Positions 6,628 to 55,641 of a DNA stretch of 64,000 nucleotides are shown here, piece after piece. The notes under the pieces are model-generated. The model was not told the origin of the DNA. It searched no databases and saw nothing but the letters and a program-made list of their open reading frames with translations. The translations under genes were made by a program, and so were the position numbers. The stretch's first letter is position 1; each line of letters begins with the position of its first letter. Location of the stretch: assembly GCF_056746865.1 (NCBI RefSeq), contig NZ_CM163382.1; one strand, given 5' to 3'.

Positions 6628-7881
6628 ATGTCAGGATCCAACACTGCAATCAGCCGTCGTCGTTTACTGCAAGGCGCGGGTGCCATGTGGCTATTGAGCG
6701 TAAGTCAGGTCAGTCTGGCTGCGGTCAGCCAGGTCGTGGCGGTGCGCGTCTGGCCTGCGTCCAGCTACACCCGCGTGACGGTAGAATCAAATCGTCAGCT
6801 GAAATATAAGCAGTTCGCGTTGAGTAACCCGGAACGCGTGGTGGTGGATATCGAAGATGTAAACCTGAACTCGGTACTCAAGGGGATGGCGGCACAAATT
6901 CGTGCAGACGACCCGTTCATCAAGTCGGCGCGCGTCGGGCAATTTGACCCGCAAACCGTACGCATGGTTTTTGAATTAAAGCAAAACGTAAAACCGCAGC
7001 TGTTTGCCCTTGCGCCGGTCGCCGGGTTTAAAGAGCGTCTGGTGATGGACCTCTATCCGGCTAATGCACAGGATATGCAGGACCCGCTGCTGGCGCTGCT
7101 GGAGGATTACAACAAAGGCGACCTCGAAAAGCAGGTGCCGCCAGCACAAAGTGGTCCACAACCGGGTAAAGCAGGGCGCGATCGTCCGATTGTTATTATG
7201 CTTGACCCTGGCCACGGCGGCGAAGACTCCGGTGCGGTGGGGAAATACAAAACGCGCGAAAAAGACGTGGTATTGCAAATAGCTCGCCGTTTGCGCTCTC
7301 TGATCGAGAAAGAGGGCAATATGAAGGTGTACATGACGCGCAATGAAGACATCTTCATTCCGTTGCAAGTGCGCGTAGCAAAAGCCCAGAAACAGCGTGC
7401 CGACCTGTTTGTCTCTATCCATGCCGACGCCTTTACCAGTCGCCAGCCGAGCGGTTCCTCTGTGTTTGCGCTCTCAACCAAAGGTGCAACCAGTACTGCG
7501 GCAAAATATCTGGCACAAACCCAGAACGCCTCGGACTTGATTGGTGGCGTGAGCAAAAGCGGTGACCGCTATGTCGACCACACCATGTTCGATATGGTGC
7601 AGTCGCTGACCATTGCCGACAGCCTTAAGTTTGGTAAAGCGGTGCTGAATAAGCTCGGTAAAATCAACAAGCTGCATAAAAATCAGGTTGAACAGGCCGG
7701 GTTTGCCGTGCTGAAAGCGCCTGATATTCCCTCCATTCTGGTCGAAACGGCGTTTATCAGTAACGTTGAGGAAGAGCGTAAACTGAAAACGGCGACCTTC
7801 CAGCAGGAAGTTGCGGAGTCTATTCTTGCGGGGATTAAAGCGTATTTTGCCGATGGGGCGACGCTGGCGAGAAGGGGATGA
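6628..7881 (+). CDS. amiC: N-acetylmuramoyl-L-alanine amidase AmiC (Tat signal RRRLLQGAG)
   Basis: Track ORF 6538..7881; start taken at the ATG at 6628 preceded by GGGAGAGG; twin-arginine signal and amidase_3 domain recognisable. Confidence 0.9.
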
Positions 7882-7883
7882 TA

Positions 7884-7910
7884 AAAAGGCGCTGAATGGC
7901 GCTTTTTTTA
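7884..7910 (+). terminator. Possible weak hairpin plus T-run after amiC
   Basis: ggcgctgaatggcgc followed by ttttttt; the stem is imperfect. Confidence 0.3.
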
Positions 7911-7923
7911 TGGGAGAGCAGAA

Positions 7924-7948
7924 ACAAAAAAACACCCGTTAGGGTGTT
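7924..7948 (-). terminator. Rho-independent terminator of the tRNA-fMet operon
   Basis: Minus strand reads acaccctaacgggtgt followed by ttttttt, immediately downstream of the last tRNA. Confidence 0.55.
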
Positions 7949-7955
7949 CAATAAT

Positions 7956-8032
<77 letters not shown>

Positions 8033-8064
8033 TCACCGTACTGCTTTATTTCATCAAATTTGAT

Positions 8065-8141
<77 letters not shown>

Positions 8142-8174
8142 TCACCGTACTGCTTTACTTCATCAAATTTTAAT

Positions 8175-8251
<77 letters not shown>

Positions 8252-8459: not shown

Positions 8460-9557
8460 ATGAAAGGACGTTGGGTAAAGTACCTTCTTATGGGCACGGT
8501 TGTGGCAATGCTTGCCGCCTGCTCTTCCAAACCAACCGATCGCGGACAGCAATATAAAGACGGGAAATTTACCCAGCCTTTCTCTCTGGTGAACCAGCCA
8601 GATGCCGTTGGCGCGCCGATTAACGCCGGTGATTTTGCCGAGCAAATTAACCATATCCGTAATTCGTCACCGCGTCTGTATGGCAACCAGAGTAATGTTT
8701 ATAACGCGGTGCAAGAGTGGCTGCGCGCAGGCGGTGATACCCGCAATATGCGCCAGTTCGGCATTGATGCCTGGCAGATGGAAGGTGCCGACAACTATGG
8801 TAACGTGCAGTTTACAGGCTATTACACGCCGGTAATTCAGGCGCGCCATACCCGCCAGGGCGAGTTCCAGTATCCGATTTACCGTATGCCGCCAAAACGT
8901 GGTCGTCTGCCGTCTCGTGCGGAGATCTACGCGGGGGCATTGAGTGATAAATATATTCTCGCTTACAGTAACTCCCTGATGGATAACTTCATTATGGATG
9001 TGCAGGGTAGTGGGTATATCGACTTTGGTGATGGCAGTCCGCTTAACTTTTTCAGCTATGCAGGGAAAAACGGTCATGCCTATCGCAGCATTGGTAAGGT
9101 GCTGATCGACCGTGGCGAAGTGAAAAAAGAAGATATGTCGATGCAGGCGATTCGTCACTGGGGCGAAACACACAGTGAAGCCGAGGTTCGCGAGCTGCTG
9201 GAACAGAACCCGTCTTTCGTCTTCTTTAAACCGCAATCTTTTGCACCGGTGAAAGGGGCAAGTGCGGTGCCGCTGGTTGGCCGTGCTTCTGTTGCCTCCG
9301 ATCGTTCAATTATTCCGCCAGGTACTACCTTGCTGGCAGAAGTGCCGCTGCTGGATAATAACGGCAAATTTAACGGTCAGTACGAATTGCGTCTGATGGT
9401 GGCGCTGGATGTCGGTGGCGCAATCAAAGGCCAACACTTCGATATCTATCAAGGGATCGGGCCGGAAGCCGGGCACCGCGCAGGTTGGTACAACCACTAT
9501 GGACGTGTCTGGGTGCTGAAAACGGCTCCGGGCGCAGGTAACGTCTTTAGCGGCTGA
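8460..9557 (+). CDS. mltA: Membrane-bound lytic murein transglycosylase A (lipoprotein, 365 aa)
   Basis: Track ORF 8178..9557 is over-extended across the tRNAs; true start is the ATG at 8460 (MKGRWVKYLLMGTVVAMLAACSS, lipobox LAAC). Confidence 0.9.
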   Translation: MKGRWVKYLLMGTVVAMLAACSSKPTDRGQQYKDGKFTQPFSLVNQPDAVGAPINAGDFAEQINHIRNSSPRLYGNQSNVYNAVQEWLRAGGDTRNMRQFGIDAWQMEGADNYGNVQFTGYYTPVIQARHTRQGEFQYPIYRMPPKRGRLPSRAEIYAGALSDKYILAYSNSLMDNFIMDVQGSGYIDFGDGSPLNFFSYAGKNGHAYRSIGKVLIDRGEVKKEDMSMQAIRHWGETHSEAEVRELLEQNPSFVFFKPQSFAPVKGASAVPLVGRASVASDRSIIPPGTTLLAEVPLLDNNGKFNGQYELRLMVALDVGGAIKGQHFDIYQGIGPEAGHRAGWYNHYGRVWVLKTAPGAGNVFSG

Positions 9558-9645: not shown

Positions 9646-9742
9646 GCCGGATGCGGCGTGAACGCCTTATCCGGCCTACAAATCATGCAAATCCAAAATA
9701 TTGCAGGAGTTATGTAGGCCTGATAAGCGTAGCGCATCAGGC
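9646..9742. repeat. REP/BIME cluster (two REP palindromes)
   Basis: gccggatgcggcgtgaacgccttatccggcctaca and gtaggcctgataagcgtagcgcatcaggc, typical enterobacterial REP units. Confidence 0.6.
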
Positions 9743-12736: not shown

Positions 12737-12944
12737 AAAAAAAAAGCACCGCAATTAGGCGGTGCTACATTAATCACTATGGACAGACAGGGTAAATGTA
12801 CAGGAAGTGAAAAAAGGTAGCTTTGCTACCATGGTCTGAATCGCAGACCAATTGCAAACACAACAACACAACATCACAACCGTAAGCCAAAAGTTCACCA
12901 GAACACGCATTCCGATAAAACTTTTCGTTCCGGCTCAGGAAGTG
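12737..12944 (-). ncRNA. gcvB: GcvB small regulatory RNA
   Basis: Minus strand reads ACTTCCTGAGCCGGAACGAAAAGTTTTATCGGAATGCGTGTTCTGGTGAACTTTTGGCTTACGGTTGTGATGTTGTGTTGTTGTG... ending in hairpin GCACCGCCTAATTGCGGTGC plus T-run; GU-rich targeting region present; divergent from gcvA. Confidence 0.85.
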
Positions 12945-30407: not shown

Positions 30408-30953
30408 GTGGACGATTTGACCGCACAAGCCCTGAAAGATTTTACTGCACGCTACTGCGATGCGTGGCATGAAGAGCATAAAAGCTGGCCGTTGAGTGAG
30501 GAACTGTACGGCGTTCCTTCACCGTGCATTATTTCAACCACCGAAGACGCCGTATACTGGCAACCCCAGCCGTTTACCGGGGAACAAAATGTAAACGCGG
30601 TTGAACGCGCTTTTGATATTGTGATACAACCCACAATTCATACCTTTTATACGACTCAGTTTGCCGGGGATATGCACGCGCAGTTTGGCGATATTAAACT
30701 GACATTGCTGCAAACCTGGAGTGAAGACGACTTCCGTCGGGTGCAGGAAAATCTGATTGGTCATCTGGTGACTCAGAAAAGGCTAAAATTGCCGCCCACG
30801 CTATTTATCGCGACGCTGGAAGAAGAGTTAGAGGTGATCTCGGTGTGTAATCTCTCCGGTGAAGTGTGTAAAGAGACGCTGGGAACACGTAAACGGGCGC
30901 ATTTAGCCTCAAATCTTGCGGAATTCCTTAATCAACTTAAGCCTCTTCTGTAA
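30408..30953 (+). CDS. syd: SecY-interacting protein Syd
   Basis: 181-aa ORF. Confidence 0.9.
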
Positions 30954-30972
30954 TCCAAATACCCCATTTGGT

Positions 30973-30990
30973 TGTGAGAGATCTCTTACA
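30973..30990. promoter_or_regulatory. UvrY (BarA/UvrY two-component) binding box upstream of csrB
   Basis: Perfect 18-bp palindrome TGTGAGAGATCTCTTACA about 175 bp upstream of the csrB 5' end. Confidence 0.6.
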
Positions 30991-31163
30991 GACTCTGTAG
31001 GAGATCGCCAGGAAATAAGCGAATACTTAAAAAGATAAGAATCGTTATTTTCATTTAAAATCAATATATTGCTTGTTAATCCTTAACTTTCATATGAAAT
31101 TTTCCTTAAGGCATTGTCTGTAAGCGCCTTGTAAGACTTCGCGAAAAAGACGATTCTATCTTC

Positions 31164-31530
31164 GTCGACAGGGAGTCAGACAACGAAGTGAACATCAGGA
31201 TGATGACACTTCTGAAGGACACACCAGGATGGTGTTTCAGGGAAAGGCTTCTGGATGAAGCGAAGAGGATGACGCAGGACGCGTTAAAGGACACCTCCAG
31301 GATGGAGAATGAGAACCGGTCAGGATGATTCGGTGGGTCAGGAAGGCCAGGGACACTTCAGGATGAAGTATCACATCGGGGTGGTGTGAGCAGGAAGCAA
31401 TAGTTCAGGATGAACGATTGGCCGCAAGGCCAGAGGAAAAGTTGTCAAGGATGAGCAGGGAGCAACAAAAGTAGCTGGAATGCTGCGAAACGAACCGGGA
31501 GCACTGTGAATACAGTGCTCCCTTTTTTTA
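31164..31530 (+). ncRNA. csrB: CsrB sRNA (CsrA-sequestering RNA)
   Basis: Begins GTCGACAGGGAGTCAGACAACGAAGTGAACATCAGGATGATG; many CAGGAUG/AGGA-type CsrA-binding motifs throughout; ends with a rho-independent terminator. Confidence 0.9.
31497..31529 (+). terminator. csrB rho-independent terminator
   Basis: gggagcactg-tgaata-cagtgctccc hairpin followed by TTTTTTT. Confidence 0.85.
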
Positions 31531-31574
31531 TTCCTGCTATTCTTCGCGGCAGTTTTTCTTATTGAGGTTGCTTT

Positions 31575-31904
31575 ATGACCACTCATGACCGCGTTCGTCT
31601 CCAGTTGCAGGCGCTTGAAGCGTTACTGCGTGAACATCAGCACTGGCGAAACGATGAACCCCAGCCGCATCAATTTAATAGTACCCAACCGTTCTTTATG
31701 GACACCATGGAACCACTGGAGTGGTTGCAGTGGGTGCTGATCCCGCGAATGCACGATTTGTTAGAAAACAACCAGCCGTTACCGGGCGCTTTTGCCGTTG
31801 CTCCCTATTATGAAATGGCGCTGGCGACGGACCACCCGCAACGCGCGCTTATTCTGGCTGAGCTGGAAAAACTGGATGCTCTTTTTGCGGATGATGCGAG
31901 CTAA
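31575..31904 (+). CDS. yqcC: DUF446 family protein
   Basis: 109-aa ORF; stop overlaps the truC start. Confidence 0.85.
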   Translation: MTTHDRVRLQLQALEALLREHQHWRNDEPQPHQFNSTQPFFMDTMEPLEWLQWVLIPRMHDLLENNQPLPGAFAVAPYYEMALATDHPQRALILAELEKLDALFADDAS

Positions 31905-33162: not shown

Positions 33163-33228
33163 CGAGCGGTAAATGCCGTTTTAGCGGTGTAAATGCCGTT
33201 TTAGCGGTGTAAATGCCGTTTTAGCGGT
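33163..33228. repeat. Tandem direct repeat, 20-bp unit gtaaatgccgttttagcggt, 3 full copies plus a partial
   Basis: Exact copies at 33169-33188, 33189-33208 and 33209-33228, preceded by a partial agcggt. Confidence 0.85.
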
Positions 33229-33627
33229 GCTGAATCGAATCTTTTCAGGCAAATGCCAGTAAAAACTGCTTCATAGCGCGGATTTTTACTGGCGTTTGCC
33301 TGGAGTCAAGCGATCCATTTCATACTCTTCTTTATTTCTTCGTTTTAACCCTTCCTTTCTTGTTCTTGTTTTCATTTCCGTGAAGTGGATTCCACCGTCC
33401 AGGGCTAATGCCAAAATTGGGCCTCATTGAACGCATTAATGTTGTGTTGTTGCACGGTGAGCCGCTATGGCGCGCTTTTTATACTGCTATTGCCAGATAT
33501 AAACACGCGCCGTATTCGGCGAACGACCTATAAAAACGGCAAAAAACACCCTACGTCACCTCTGATTTCCTGGCGATGTCGCAGTCCAGAGTGAGCGTGG
33601 CTAACGCGAATTTTCAGGAGTGCAACA

Positions 33628-37913: not shown

Positions 37914-40670
37914 TTACCCGAGAATTTTGCTGGCTTCGCGCGCTACATTATCCATCTCGTCCAACAGTTCCAGCAGCTCCGGCTCCAAATCTTCTTCTTT
38001 AGTACCGCTACGTAGCTGTTGTTCGATCAGTTGGCAGAGATTCTTCATACGCGGCACACCGCTATAGCCGCAACTGCCATGCAGTTTATGAATCAAATCA
38101 ACCAGGCCTTCCGGGTTTTCTCCAACCAGCTGTTCCTCAACTTTGTTGCGAACTTCAGGCAGGAAATCGAGTAACATTTGCAGCATATCGCGCGCTAAAT
38201 CGGTTTTTCCTGCTGCCTGGCGTAGTGCCAGTTGCCAGTCGAGGGTCGCATTCGGGTTCACCACAATTTCGTTGACTTCGGGCGTCACGACGCGAGAGGA
38301 AATACCGCTGCCAGGCTTGTAGCGCAACAGCAAATTATGCAATCGTTCTTCTTCAATCGGTTTCGCCAGATAATCGCTCATCCCTGCGCCAAGCAGCTTC
38401 TCTTTTTGCCCGGCCATTGCATGCGCCGTTACCGCGATAACTGGCGTTTGTTGCTGATGGGGGAGCTGGTGGATGAGTTCGCAGGCCCGAATGCCGTCCA
38501 TGTCCGGCATTTGAATATCCATTAAGATCAAATCGAACGGCATCTGTTTCGCCCGTTCAACCGCCTGATGCCCGCTATCGCAAAGTTCCACATGTTGCAC
38601 CATATCTTCCAGCAATGCGCCGATAAGTTTCAGGTTAGCGGGGTTGTCATCAACCGCCATGACTGTCATTGCCAGCTTACTTTCATCGGTTACAGGCAAA
38701 AGCGTGTTTTGTTTGTGATGACAAAATTCCGTCAGGGCAGGTAACAGGCGCGTAGGTGTTAATGGTTTCAGCAGACACGCGCCGATACCATCTTGCTTAA
38801 GTTTTTCAGCATTGACTTGTGCATGGCAAGGAAGTGCCAGCATCAGAAAATCGGTCATCGATACCGCTTTCGCTAATCGCTCATGTTGCATTGTTAGCGG
38901 CTCGCGGAAGGTCACCGCAATGCCTAATAACATCATGTCGTAATGCGCGGGAGGCAGCGCGGAGAACGTTGGGCTATAAACCACTTCCAGCGGCGTTTCA
39001 CTTAAAATATCCAGCGTGCATTGCGCTGCTGCGGAGTTTGGTTCGACATAGGCCAGGCGCTTGCCGGCGAGGCATTGGGTGGATGGCCCTTCGATAATAA
39101 TGTTCGGATTCAGATCGAGATTAATGTGGAACCAGAAAGTTGAACCGCGATTCGGCTGGCTATGGAACGAAATATCGCCGCCCATTTCATTAACCAGTTT
39201 TTGTGTAATCACCAGCCCCAGCCCGGTGCCACCATGACGGCGGGAAATACTGGCATCAGCCTGTCGGAAGGCCTGGAATAAGCGCGATTGATCGCGTTCC
39301 GGAATACCAATGCCGGTATCCCGAATCTGCACTTCAATCTGCACTTTGGTATTACTCAGCGCACGTTTTTCTACCAGAATATCAATGTTGCCATTCTCGG
39401 TGAATTTAATTGCATTCCCTACCAGGTTAGTGATGATTTGCTGTAATCGTAGTGGGTCGCCGATAACGTTATCAGGCACGTCGCTTTTAATATTGAGCGT
39501 CAGTTCCAGCCCTTTATCGTGAGAAGAATGTGCCAGCAGGGTAACGACTTCATCCAGCGTGCTGCGTAGTGGGAATGGAATACTTTCCAGAATCAGCTTA
39601 CCTGCTTCCAGTTTCGAGAAGTCGAGAACATCATTAATAATTGCCAGCAAATTATTTGCCGAACGTTCAATCGTATTCAGGTGATCGCGCTGCGTTGGTG
39701 TTAATTCTGTTTTCAGCGTCAGGCGGGTAAAGCCAATAACACCATTCAGTGGTGTACGCAGTTCGTGTGACATATTTGCCAGAAACTCGGATTTAATACG
39801 CGCCGCTTCCTGGGCGCGCTTTTTCGCCAGATCCAACTCAACGTTCTGAATTTCCATCTGCTCCAGCGTTTCACGCAGATCGGACGTCGCCTGGTCGATA
39901 TTGTGCTGCATCTCTTCGTGATAAGCAGCCAGCGACATTGCCATCGAGTTGATACCGTTTTTCAGCATATCCAGCTCACCAAGCATAAATCCTTCCACCC
40001 GGCTGTCGAGTTGCCCGCGACGGATGCGGTCGACGGTATTCACCATGTTGCGAATCGGACCGGTTACATCGCGCATTAAGCGCCAGCCAAAAATAAGCGC
40101 AATACCGATACAAAACAGCATCATCACGCTGGAAATAAAGATCTCTTTATATTGCTGCAAGCGAACCGATTTAAGATCCAGCTCCAGCGCAATATATCCC
40201 AGCATATTTTGACTATTTTTGGCATCGCTACTGGGCGATTCGTCGGGGGAGTAACTCTCAGAAATAATCGGCGTGCGGAGGATCATAATATCGCCGTCAC
40301 GAGTGACAGTGAGCTGGCGAGGAAACGGCACGTTGCTGCCGAGCTGCATTGATGAGGGATCAAGATGAAAATTGGAAGTGACAAAGAGTCGGTTATTTTC
40401 ATCATAAACCGAAATCGCGCGAACAATATCGGAATGGCGACGATGCAGTACGCTTATTAACTGACCGATAGATTCGCGATTTTGCAGGCTCATGCCATAT
40501 TCAGTAGAAACTGCAAGCGGCTCAATAATGCTGGCTCCGGCATCTTCCAGTTGACGCTGCAAGTCGTTATAGCGATGCACAACGAAAAAGATACTCAGCA
40601 ATAAACCAATAAGGACGGTCGGTGCCAGGATCAGAATCATCATGCGTGCGCGCAGGCTGTAGTTGGTCAT
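37914..40670 (-). CDS. barA: Hybrid sensor histidine kinase BarA (HAMP-HisKA-HATPase-REC-HPt)
   Basis: 918-aa ORF; cognate regulator UvrY controls csrB, also present in this window. Confidence 0.95.
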
Positions 40671-44310: not shown

Positions 44311-44319
44311 TCTTACATA

Positions 44320-44347
44320 GCTGGATATGGCGTCAGCCGTATCCAGC
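44320..44347 (+). terminator. Hairpin downstream of relA
   Basis: gctggata ... tatccagc, 8-bp stem with 12-nt loop, followed by gatatctttt. Confidence 0.4.
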
Positions 44348-44405
44348 GATATCTTTTACTCGAAGGTATTACACCTGACAGACCCGCAATTTTCAGGACA
44401 TTCTA

Positions 44406-53273: not shown

Positions 53274-53851
53274 GAGTTCCCCGCGCCAGCGGGGATAAAC
53301 CGTCTGGGCCGGATTCGATCCCGCGCGTACCGGAGAGTTCCCCGCGCCAGCGGGGATAAACCGTACAATCCCGCATCGAAACTGAATACCCCGATGAGTT
53401 CCCCGCGCCAGCGGGGATAAACCGTTGCCCAGGCTTTTGCGAAAATTTGTGATTTGGAGTTCCCCGCGCCAGCGGGGATAAACCGACACGGGGCAGATTG
53501 AGCAGGACTGCGACCTCGAGTTCCCCGCGCCAGCGGGGATAAACCGGCAGCAGATTTACAAACAGATCGGAGATTACTGAGTTCCCCGCGCCAGCGGGGA
53601 TAAACCGCGCGGCCTGCGCTCGCGTAAAATCAGTTGCAGGAGTTCCCCGCGCCAGCGGGGATAAACCGTCCGCGCAAGCCTATATAAACCAGATTGATCA
53701 GAGTTCCCCGCGCCAGCGGGGATAAACCGCGAAATCGCACGCGCTTCCCGCATGGGGGAAAGAGTTCCCCGCGCCAGCGGGGATAAACCGTGTAAAAGTC
53801 TTGGTTTTGGCGCATCATTTGTGAGTTCCCCGCGCCAGCGGGGATAAACCA
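53274..53851 (+). CRISPR. Type I-E CRISPR array: 10 repeats of 29 bp (GAGTTCCCCGCGCCAGCGGGGATAAACCG) and 9 spacers of 32 bp; the last repeat is degenerate at its 3' end
   Basis: Exact 61-bp periodicity; repeats start at 53274, 53335, 53396, 53457, 53518, 53579, 53640, 53701, 53762, 53823; no cas genes in the window. Confidence 0.95.
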
Positions 53852-54379
53852 CCATATAACCCGTTATCTCTTTCTCAAGTTTTTATATTAGCAGTACTCG
53901 TATTAAGCAATATATCCACGTAACACCTCATGTTCAAAATAGCTCTCCATATATGAGAAGTTCACAATTATCGATACAAAAAATCAAATTTAATTAAAGT
54001 GTTAGTTGTATGATACTTAAATCATTAAGAAATTATCATATATTATTTTTTTAATATTGAATTGATGTTTGTTAATTTTTTCTTTAGGATAGTAGTTTGT
54101 TTTTTAAGCTTATTATTCATTGATTAAGTAATAAATCTGGAAATTTGTCTTTGTTTTGAGGCTAATGAGTGGTTTTACATAATCGCCTCTATACGCTGTT
54201 GATGAATAGTTCTTATGAATAAAGATATCCAGTTCATACTTTAAGTGAAAATTGATAAAGTGCGATTCGTATTGTCTTTTATTCTAAATAGACTGGCCCC
54301 CTGAATCTCCAGACAACCAATATCACTTAAATAAGTGATAGTCTTAATACTAGTTTTTAGACTAGTCATTGGAGAGCAG

Positions 54380-54745
54380 ATGATTGATGTCTTAGGACCG
54401 GAGAAACGCAGACGGCGTACTACACAGGAAAAGATCGCTATTGTTCAGCAGAGTTTTGAACCGGGAATGACGGTCTCCCTTGTTGCCCGGCAACACGGTG
54501 TGGCAGCCAGCCAGTTATTTCTCTGGCGCAAGCAATACCAGGAGGGAAGTCTTACTGCTGTGGCCGCAGGAGAGCAGGTCGTTCCTGCCTCTGAACTTGC
54601 TGCTGCCATGAAGCAGATTAAAGAACTCCAGCGCCTGCTCGGCAAAAAAACGATGGAAAATGAACTCCTTAAAGAAGCCGTTGAATACGGGCGTGCAAAA
54701 AAGTGGATAGCGCACGCGCCCTTATTGCCCGGGGATGGGGAGTAA
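54380..54745 (+). CDS. insC: IS2 transposase OrfA (InsC), helix-turn-helix
   Basis: Track ORF 54335..54745; start taken at [13 protein letters not shown] (121 aa). Confidence 0.9.
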
Positions 54746-55608
54746 GCTTAGTCAGCCGTTGTCTCCGGGTGTCGCGTGCGCAGTTGCACGTCATTCTCAG
54801 ACGAACCGATGACTGGAAAGATGGTCGCCGCAGCCGTCACTCAGATGATACGGATGTGCTTCTCCGTATACACCATGTTATCGGAGAGCTGCCCACGTAT
54901 GGTTATCGTCGGGTATGGGCGCTGCTTCGCAGACAGGCCGAACTTGATGGTATGCCTGCGATCAATGCCAAACGTGTTTACCGGATCATGCGCCAGAATG
55001 CGCTGTTGCTTGAGCGAAAAACCGCTGTACCGCCATCGAAACGGGCACATACTGGCAAAGTGGCCGTGAAAGAAAGCAATCAACGATGGTGCTCTGACGG
55101 GTTCGAGTTCCGCTGTGATAACGGAGAAAAACTGCGAGTCACGTTCGCGCTGGACTGCTGTGACCGTGAGGCACTGCACTGGGCAGTCACTACGGGCGGC
55201 TTCGACAGTGAAACAGTACAGGACGTAATGCTGGGAGCGGTGGAACGCCGCTTCGGCAACGAGCTTCCGGCGTCTCCAGTAGAGTGGCTGACGGATAATG
55301 GTTCATGCTACCGGGCTAATGAAACACGGCAGTTTGCCCGGATGTTGGGGCTTGAACCGAAGAACACGGCGGTGCGGAGTCCGGAGAGTAACGGCATAGC
55401 AGAGAGCTTCGTGAAAACGATAAAGCGTGACTACATCAGTATCATGCCTAAACCAGACGGGTTAACGGCAGCAAAGAACCTTGCAGAGGCGTTCGAGCAT
55501 TATAACGAATGGCATCCGCATAGTGCACTGGGTTATCGCTCGCCACGGGAATATCTACGGCAGCGGGCCAGTAATGGGTTAAGTGATAACAGGTGTCTGG
55601 AAATATAG
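54703..55608 (+). CDS. insD: IS2 transposase OrfB (InsD), DDE catalytic domain; overlaps OrfA in the -1 frame (programmed frameshift arrangement)
   Basis: 301-aa ORF recognised as IS2 InsD. Confidence 0.9.
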
Positions 55609-55641
55609 GGGCAAATCCACTAAAGACATCGAGTGTAGTTA

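Follow-up and report, generated by a model that had tools for sequence, protein, structure and literature searches.

csrB and its UvrY box in the syd-yqcC intergenic region of an Escherichia coli chromosome, 6.4 kb from barA

Is there a gene in the unannotated space between syd and yqcC, and if so, which one? We analyzed a stretch of 64,000 nucleotides from contig NZ_CM163382.1 (NCBI RefSeq assembly GCF_056746865.1), referred to here as the window. The whole window is 100% identical to 118UI (urine isolate, Mexico) save two indel differences, and the RefSeq/PGAP record of 118UI, 100% identical at this place, has nothing annotated between syd and yqcC (window 30954..31574; L001 10055..10675). 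The upstream neighbour syd encodes the SecY-interacting protein (30408..30953, + strand; NCBIfam NF003439, 285.8 bits) and the downstream neighbour is yqcC (DUF446; 31575..31904, + strand; Pfam PF04287, 119 bits); both are annotated in 118UI and in K-12. The initial annotation had proposed that the space holds a non-coding gene for the sRNA CsrB, preceded by a UvrY box and located about 6 kb from barA, the gene for the sensor kinase.

An Rfam scan of the whole window returned a match to the CsrB model RF00018 at 31173..31532 (+ strand) with 382.9 bits (E = 2.2e-111), against a gathering score of 71 bits; overlapping matches of the same clan were reduced to the best one. The match covers positions 1-356 of the 356-position model and shows no truncation. 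The curated csrB of K-12 MG1655 (b4408, 369 nt) aligns to 31164..31532, its annotated start lying 9 nt 5' of the Rfam model start. In K-12 the gene occupies the same syd-yqcC locus, has the same extent of 369 nt and carries the same number of GGA sites (22); csrB shares the orientation of its two neighbours. The Rfam/Infernal search had been named beforehand as the analysis able to refute the CsrB assignment; it upheld the assignment, as did the annotation of the same sequence as csrB (b4408) in the K-12 record. The extent put forward earlier, ∼367 nt ending at 31530, was correct to within 2 nt, the curated annotation giving 369 nt and an end at 31532. From the RF00018 match, the syd-yqcC synteny and the near-identity to K-12, we conclude with a probability of about 97% that 31164..31532 (+) is E. 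coli csrB, which would be transcribed via a box for phosphorylated UvrY (UvrY-P) and would sequester CsrA.

The 369-nt RNA contains 22 GGA (CsrA-binding) motifs, 21 of them inside the Rfam span, and the opposite strand has 2. The Rfam span also holds 14 AGGA, 6 CAGGATG and 9 CAGGA[A/T/C]G motifs, in agreement with the many CAGGAUG/AGGA motifs described initially. Composition-preserving mononucleotide shuffles gave an expectation of 12.0 ± 2.7 GGA; the window-wide mean is 4.5 GGA per 360 nt, with a maximum of 12 outside csrB. The minimum free energy (MFE) of the fold of 31173..31541 corresponds to z = -5.28 vs. dinucleotide shuffles. Seventeen of the 22 GGA motifs are fully unpaired in the MFE fold. 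The count of GGA motifs in hairpin loops, suggested earlier as a check, came to 9 entirely within loops, whereas shuffles averaged 1.5 and never exceeded 5. The mean unpaired probability was 0.81 for the GGA triplets vs. 0.44 for the whole RNA. The 22-site numbering, with site 22 in the terminator hairpin, and the length of 369 nt are those of Vakulskas et al. 2016 (PMC5027483), with which the window csrB agrees in number of sites, in length and in the positions of A327 and A331. CsrB of K-12 binds multiple CsrA dimers and antagonizes CsrA (PMC4682653, PMC5027483). All 22 GGA sites are kept in the window copy, and CsrA sequestration, carried over from the K-12 literature, is predicted here as well: the 22 motifs, mostly single-stranded or in short hairpin loops, would bind multiple CsrA dimers, and CsrB would titrate CsrA off its mRNA targets.

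The RNA ends in an intrinsic terminator at 31497..31529 (+), recovered by a terminator scan and as an Rfam helix. Its 11-bp stem GGGAGCACTGT/ACAGTGCTCCC (31497..31522) has 7 G-C pairs and a 4-nt loop and is followed by TTTTTTT, so that the strong terminator of the initial annotation is confirmed by the scan. GGA site 22 sits inside the stem, and orthologues preserve this helix through compensatory changes. Taking +1 as 31164, the coordinates of PMC5027483 place a turnover-control segment at 31459..31494 (+), with GGA sites 20 (31459..31461) and 21 (31477..31479) and the necessary RNase E cleavage site. The RNase E positions A327 and A331 correspond to 31490 and 31494, both A in the window, and the entire segment is identical to K-12. 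Cleavage by RNase E at A327/A331 and protection by CsrA sites 20 and 21 have been reported (PMC5027483). If turnover proceeds as described in the K-12 literature, RNase E would clear CsrB by cutting just 5' of the terminator, CsrA bound to GGA sites 20 and 21 would shield the RNA from RNase E, and CsrD would override the shield.

Upstream of the RNA, an 18-bp near-perfect inverted repeat, TGTGAGAGATCTCTTACA (halves TGTGAGAGA|TCTCTTACA), is found at 30973..30990, 19 bp after the syd stop codon. It spans -191..-174 (centre -182.5) relative to +1, has a GATC (Dam) site at its middle and is found at no other place in the window. This repeat had been described as a perfect 18-bp palindrome serving as the UvrY box; the assignment as UvrY box stands, and the perfection does not, since 16 of the 18 positions are self-complementary and one pair, G4 opposite T15, is mismatched. 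Zere et al. 2015 reported for E. coli csrB an "18 nt nearly perfect palindrome" centred at -183/-182, which is protected by phosphorylated UvrY in a DNase I footprint and shows BarA-dependent ChIP-exo crosslinking (PMC4682653). The repeat in the window has the same letters and the same distance to +1 as this footprinted UvrY-P site. Binding of UvrY-P and dependence on BarA are expected here from the K-12 data, the box being identical. In Pseudomonas and related gammaproteobacteria, the orthologous two-component system GacS/GacA activates GGA-rich sponge RNAs; RsmY and RsmZ are much shorter than CsrB and have fewer GGA motifs. The upstream box of the GacS/GacA-RsmY/RsmZ system is of the TGTAAG-N6-CTTACA type, as is the one at 30973..30990, and an 18-bp Gac-type consensus is quoted in PMC4682653.

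An extra half-site-like element, TGTAGGAGA, follows at 30996..31004 (+), 5 bp 3' of the inverted repeat. In csrB of E. coli and Salmonella, partial conservation of TGTAGGAGA was noted 5 bp past the palindrome (PMC4682653). In an alignment of 13 Enterobacterales promoters the TGT, G, A and T positions of this third half-site (TGT..G..AT) are invariant, though they lie outside the pattern by which boxes were searched, and in the survey described below TGT occurs exactly 5 bp past the box in 52 of 91 loci.

For the survey, one genome per species was scanned for TGTRAGAGATCTCTYACA, which yielded 120 loci with 125 boxes in Enterobacterales, Vibrionaceae, Shewanella, Halomonadaceae, Alcanivorax and Kangiella. 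The pattern itself required the central GATC, and its presence is no gauge of conservation. The better side of the boxes had a median of 22 GGA per 300 nt vs. 5 on the other side, and for 91 of the 125 boxes the better side had at least 18 GGA per 300 nt. A full-length CsrB match adjoins the box in 16 of 19 taxonomically spread loci searched with Rfam, including 14 of 14 from Enterobacterales. In the window, 183 nt separate the edge of the box from Rfam position 1. The corresponding distance is 180-184 nt in E. albertii, three Citrobacter, two Enterobacter, Pluralibacter, Pseudescherichia and Serratia, 166-197 nt in remoter Enterobacterales, and ∼262-265 nt in Vibrio and Photobacterium. The orthologues carry 17-25 GGA, a range in which the count of the window is typical. 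Within E. coli, csrB gave one ungapped match at 98.4-100% identity in each genome among the full-length matches listed, and repeat number, which the initial annotation had proposed to compare, is therefore fixed within E. coli among these matches while ranging over 17-25 GGA across genera.

Several further observations came from the survey loci. Among 91 loci, the box is a perfect palindrome in 20; in the others it is asymmetric, with the half that contains the G, TGTGAGAGA, farther from the RNA in 59 loci and nearer to it in 12. These counts (loci L003-L122) are phylogenetically non-independent. The box loci of Shewanella, Alcanivorax and Vreelandella gave no RF00018 match at the gathering score. 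In Shewanella morhuae (L019), a permissive search found tandem CsrB-like RNAs at 7671..8019 (-) and 8575..8954 (-) with 54.9 and 57.1 bits, under the gathering score of 71 (E ∼1e-12 to 1e-13), one of them 242 nt from the box. The loci of Alcanivorax (L005) and Vreelandella (L048) had no Rfam match even in the permissive search and only ∼10 GGA per 300 nt by the box; they possibly encode short Rsm-type RNAs missed by the library models.

Inverted repeats after genes are frequently terminators, and the repeat at 30973..30990 stands directly 3' of syd, with the stop codon 19 bp upstream. It might accordingly be read as the syd terminator, or as a chance palindrome. The repeat, however, is A/T-rich, its arms abut without a loop and no T-run trails it, and the terminator scan did not call it. 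Neither reading explains why 91 of the 125 occurrences of this 18-mer family, across Enterobacterales, Vibrionaceae and Shewanella, adjoin a GGA-rich RNA, at loci lacking syd as well, or why the spacing from box to csrB is held at 180-184 nt in 10 Enterobacterales genomes, the window counted. The published UvrY-P footprint, moreover, covers the repeat (PMC4682653). We consider both readings very unlikely and retain the repeat as the UvrY-P site.

Between the UvrY box and the promoter, the IHF core consensus AATCAATATATTG (WATCAANNNNTTR) is present as an exact match at 31059..31071 (+), i.e., -105..-93. Exact WATCAANNNNTTR matches number only 7 in the whole 64-kb window. The alignment of promoters from 13 genera shows partial conservation of the core, its TT being invariant. 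A putative IHF site was reported between the upstream UvrY site and a second crosslinking region close to the promoter (-56..+25), and CsrB drops ∼10-fold in ihf mutants (PMC4682653). We infer that the 13-mer at 31059..31071 is this published IHF site. A strict consensus scan of 30900..31620 called no sigma-70 promoter, as fits an activator-dependent promoter, and the -35 and -10 were therefore drawn from conservation. The putative weak sigma-70 promoter (31129..31157, +) would consist of a -35 TTGTAA at 31129..31134, a 17-bp spacer and a -10 GATTCT at 31152..31157, with +1 seven nt downstream; the exact hexamers are predictions from sequence and conservation. Across 13 genera, the TTG of the -35 does not vary, and neither do A2 and T6 of the -10. 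The predicted -35 overlaps a half-site-like TGTAAGA, and the predicted promoter falls within the UvrY crosslinking region -56..+25 of PMC4682653. UvrY-P on the box ∼183 bp upstream would activate this promoter, and an IHF bend of the A/T-rich DNA at about -99 is thought to bring UvrY-P to RNA polymerase.

The 621-bp syd-yqcC intergenic region is 99% identical to K-12, with 8 differences: 2 in the RNA, 5 in the promoter region and 1 downstream. At 31215 the window has A and K-12 has C, so that GGA site 3 reads AAGGAC in the window and CAGGAC in K-12. At 31503, A in the window replaces the G of K-12, which turns a G-U pair of the terminator into A-U and makes the stem fully Watson-Crick. The window alleles at both positions equal the Rfam consensus. 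The substitutions in the promoter region are at 30968, 31065, 31068, 31072 and 31081. Four of the 8 differences thus fall within 17 bp (31065..31081), in the NNNN stretch of the IHF core and immediately past it, and no substitution touches the box, the third half-site, the -35, the -10 or the consensus positions of the IHF site. It is conceivable, though unlikely, that this cluster on the IHF flank tunes csrB output differently from K-12 in this lineage. The terminator architecture, UvrY box, third half-site, -35/-10 and RNase E segment are the same in K-12.

A search of complete E. coli genomes with a query of 701 bp around csrB found the csrB locus in 5425 of 5426, always between syd and yqcC; the match was nearly always single and chromosomal. 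In 22 genomes no place reached 80% coverage of the query, and a single genome lacked any match. In E. coli MARGA_3 an IS3-family element, whose transposase has a programmed frameshift, is inserted inside csrB near nt 94 (L123 4358..5700, corresponding to window ∼31257), a natural disruption of the gene. Mobile csrB was also considered and rejected: four "plasmid" matches in PLSDB are to records of 4.8-4.9 Mb and 0.73 Mb, i.e., mislabelled chromosomes or pieces of chromosomes, and of three "phage" matches one is to a Salmonella genome contig and two are to unannotated records of 2.4 and 6.5 kb. The 2.4- and 6.5-kb records, the latter named a Salmonella phage, are ∼87% identical to the query. 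The sequences matched in the phage collection probably represent host DNA, not phage genes.

Could the region be another member of the Csr/Rsm clan, or a decayed, non-functional copy of csrB? E. coli CsrC shares the mechanism of a GGA-rich CsrA sponge and is likewise activated by UvrY-P on a distal inverted repeat (PMC4682653), and disrupted csrB is known in some E. coli, as in MARGA_3 and perhaps in the 22 genomes lacking a place that covers at least 80% of the query. The best clan match, on the other hand, is RF00018 over all 356 model positions; no better-scoring CsrC model match and no truncation were observed, and the whole-window Rfam scan gave no CsrC match at any other place. The syd-yqcC synteny is specific to csrB, whereas csrC lies at another locus, has a less symmetric box of different sequence (TGTGAGACATTGCCGATA) and is expressed independently of IHF (PMC4682653). 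The locus is uninterrupted and its RNA is 2 nt away from the functional K-12 csrB, with the family consensus at both of these nucleotides. CsrC or a decayed copy is therefore extremely improbable, and we regard the gene as an intact csrB.

That the region instead encodes one or more small proteins, with the GGA periodicity as a by-product of coding, is scarcely credible and was rejected: mechanical ORFs of 22-71 aa do overlap it on both strands, but no CDS is annotated here in K-12 or 118UI, orthologues have indels of 1 and 2 nt across the RNA body, the covariance-model score is far over threshold, and conservation tracks stems (compensatory pairs) and GGA loops, not a reading frame. An RNAalifold consensus of 13 Enterobacterales orthologues, gathered via the upstream box and not via the RNA, has 62 pairs, in 24 of which both partners have changed and pairing is preserved; these include several hairpins with GGA loops and the terminator.

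Downstream of csrB the gene order is yqcC, truC, yqcA, gudPXD and then barA, which encodes the tripartite sensor histidine kinase responsible for UvrY phosphorylation (37914..40670, - strand; annotated in 118UI and K-12). The 918-aa product matches the NCBIfam BarA equivalog NF008318 over residues 1-917 with 1623.9 bits (cutoff 890), and the runner-up model, LetS, remained under its own cutoff. The distance from the csrB 3' end to barA is 6.4 kb, in line with the ∼6 kb given initially. In K-12, as described in the literature, BarA autophosphorylates and passes the phosphate to UvrY, and the same would be expected here. The window was said to hold both the sensor and the RNA output of the BarA/UvrY-Csr circuit, which is correct for barA and csrB; uvrY and csrA are absent from the window according to the annotation of the corresponding 118UI stretches, so it does not hold the full circuit.

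The order syd-csrB-yqcC-truC-yqcA is widespread in Enterobacterales and partly retained in Vibrionaceae and Shewanella, and csrB is flanked by syd and yqcC in dozens of Enterobacterales loci. In E. albertii, barA directly follows yqcA, ∼1.7 kb from csrB; the gap of 6.4 kb in E. coli exists because gudPXD intervenes. In several Enterobacter-like loci barA is also near csrB. The linkage of barA and csrB may be upheld by selection and not merely be inherited gene order, which we regard as unlikely; if it were selected, the reason might be, for instance, that a matched sensor and output are inherited together or that the two genes share a chromosomal micro-environment.

Other features were observed elsewhere in the window. 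Three tandem tRNA-Met (CAT) genes form repeat units of 109-110 bp at 7956..8251 (-), where 118UI has one copy; either the copy number truly differs or the repeats collapsed in assembly. Two more sRNAs matched Rfam: GcvB at 12738..12943 (-), full length to RF00022 with 199 bits and adjoining gcvA, and ES036 (CssrF) at 9679..9721 (+) with 46.5 bits (gathering score 37.6), which maps between tcdA and mltA on the 118UI annotation. A perfect 20-bp repeat, GTAAATGCCGTTTTAGCGGT, occurs three times in tandem at 33169..33229 between yqcA and gudP; the K-12 alignment breaks exactly there, implying another copy number in K-12. A CRISPR array of 10 repeats (GAGTTCCCCGCGCCAGCGGGGATAAACCG; 61-bp period) is located at 53274..53851 between ygcE and queE, with no cas genes annotated beside it in the adjacent 118UI stretch. 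Between the array and ygcE lies a 1331-bp insertion (54289..55619) that 118UI lacks. This IS3-family element, similar in size to IS2, has imperfect terminal inverted repeats of 33 nt and two overlapping ORFs (HTH_Tnp_1 and rve integrase core). The alignments on its two sides share 5 bp, as a target duplication would produce. The gap between relA and mazG is only ∼95 bp (44311..44405; 118UI annotation, 99.99% identical here); K-12 has the mazEF toxin-antitoxin genes between relA and mazG, and this lineage appears to be without mazEF at that site.

What does the locus mean for E. coli? It is the textbook E. coli csrB, with no departure from published CsrB biology. Published work on E. coli already covers the gene, the UvrY box, the dependence on IHF and the pathway of decay, and the copy described here is near-identical, so the finding carries little weight as a discovery. 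Its bearing is on annotation. A csrB feature underlies the match in none of the 12 E. coli genomes among the matches listed, and when these and 118UI are compared with K-12, csrB is listed only in the curated K-12 record. A reading of the genome based on ORFs would miss this global regulator, and a covariance-model scan recovers it unambiguously.
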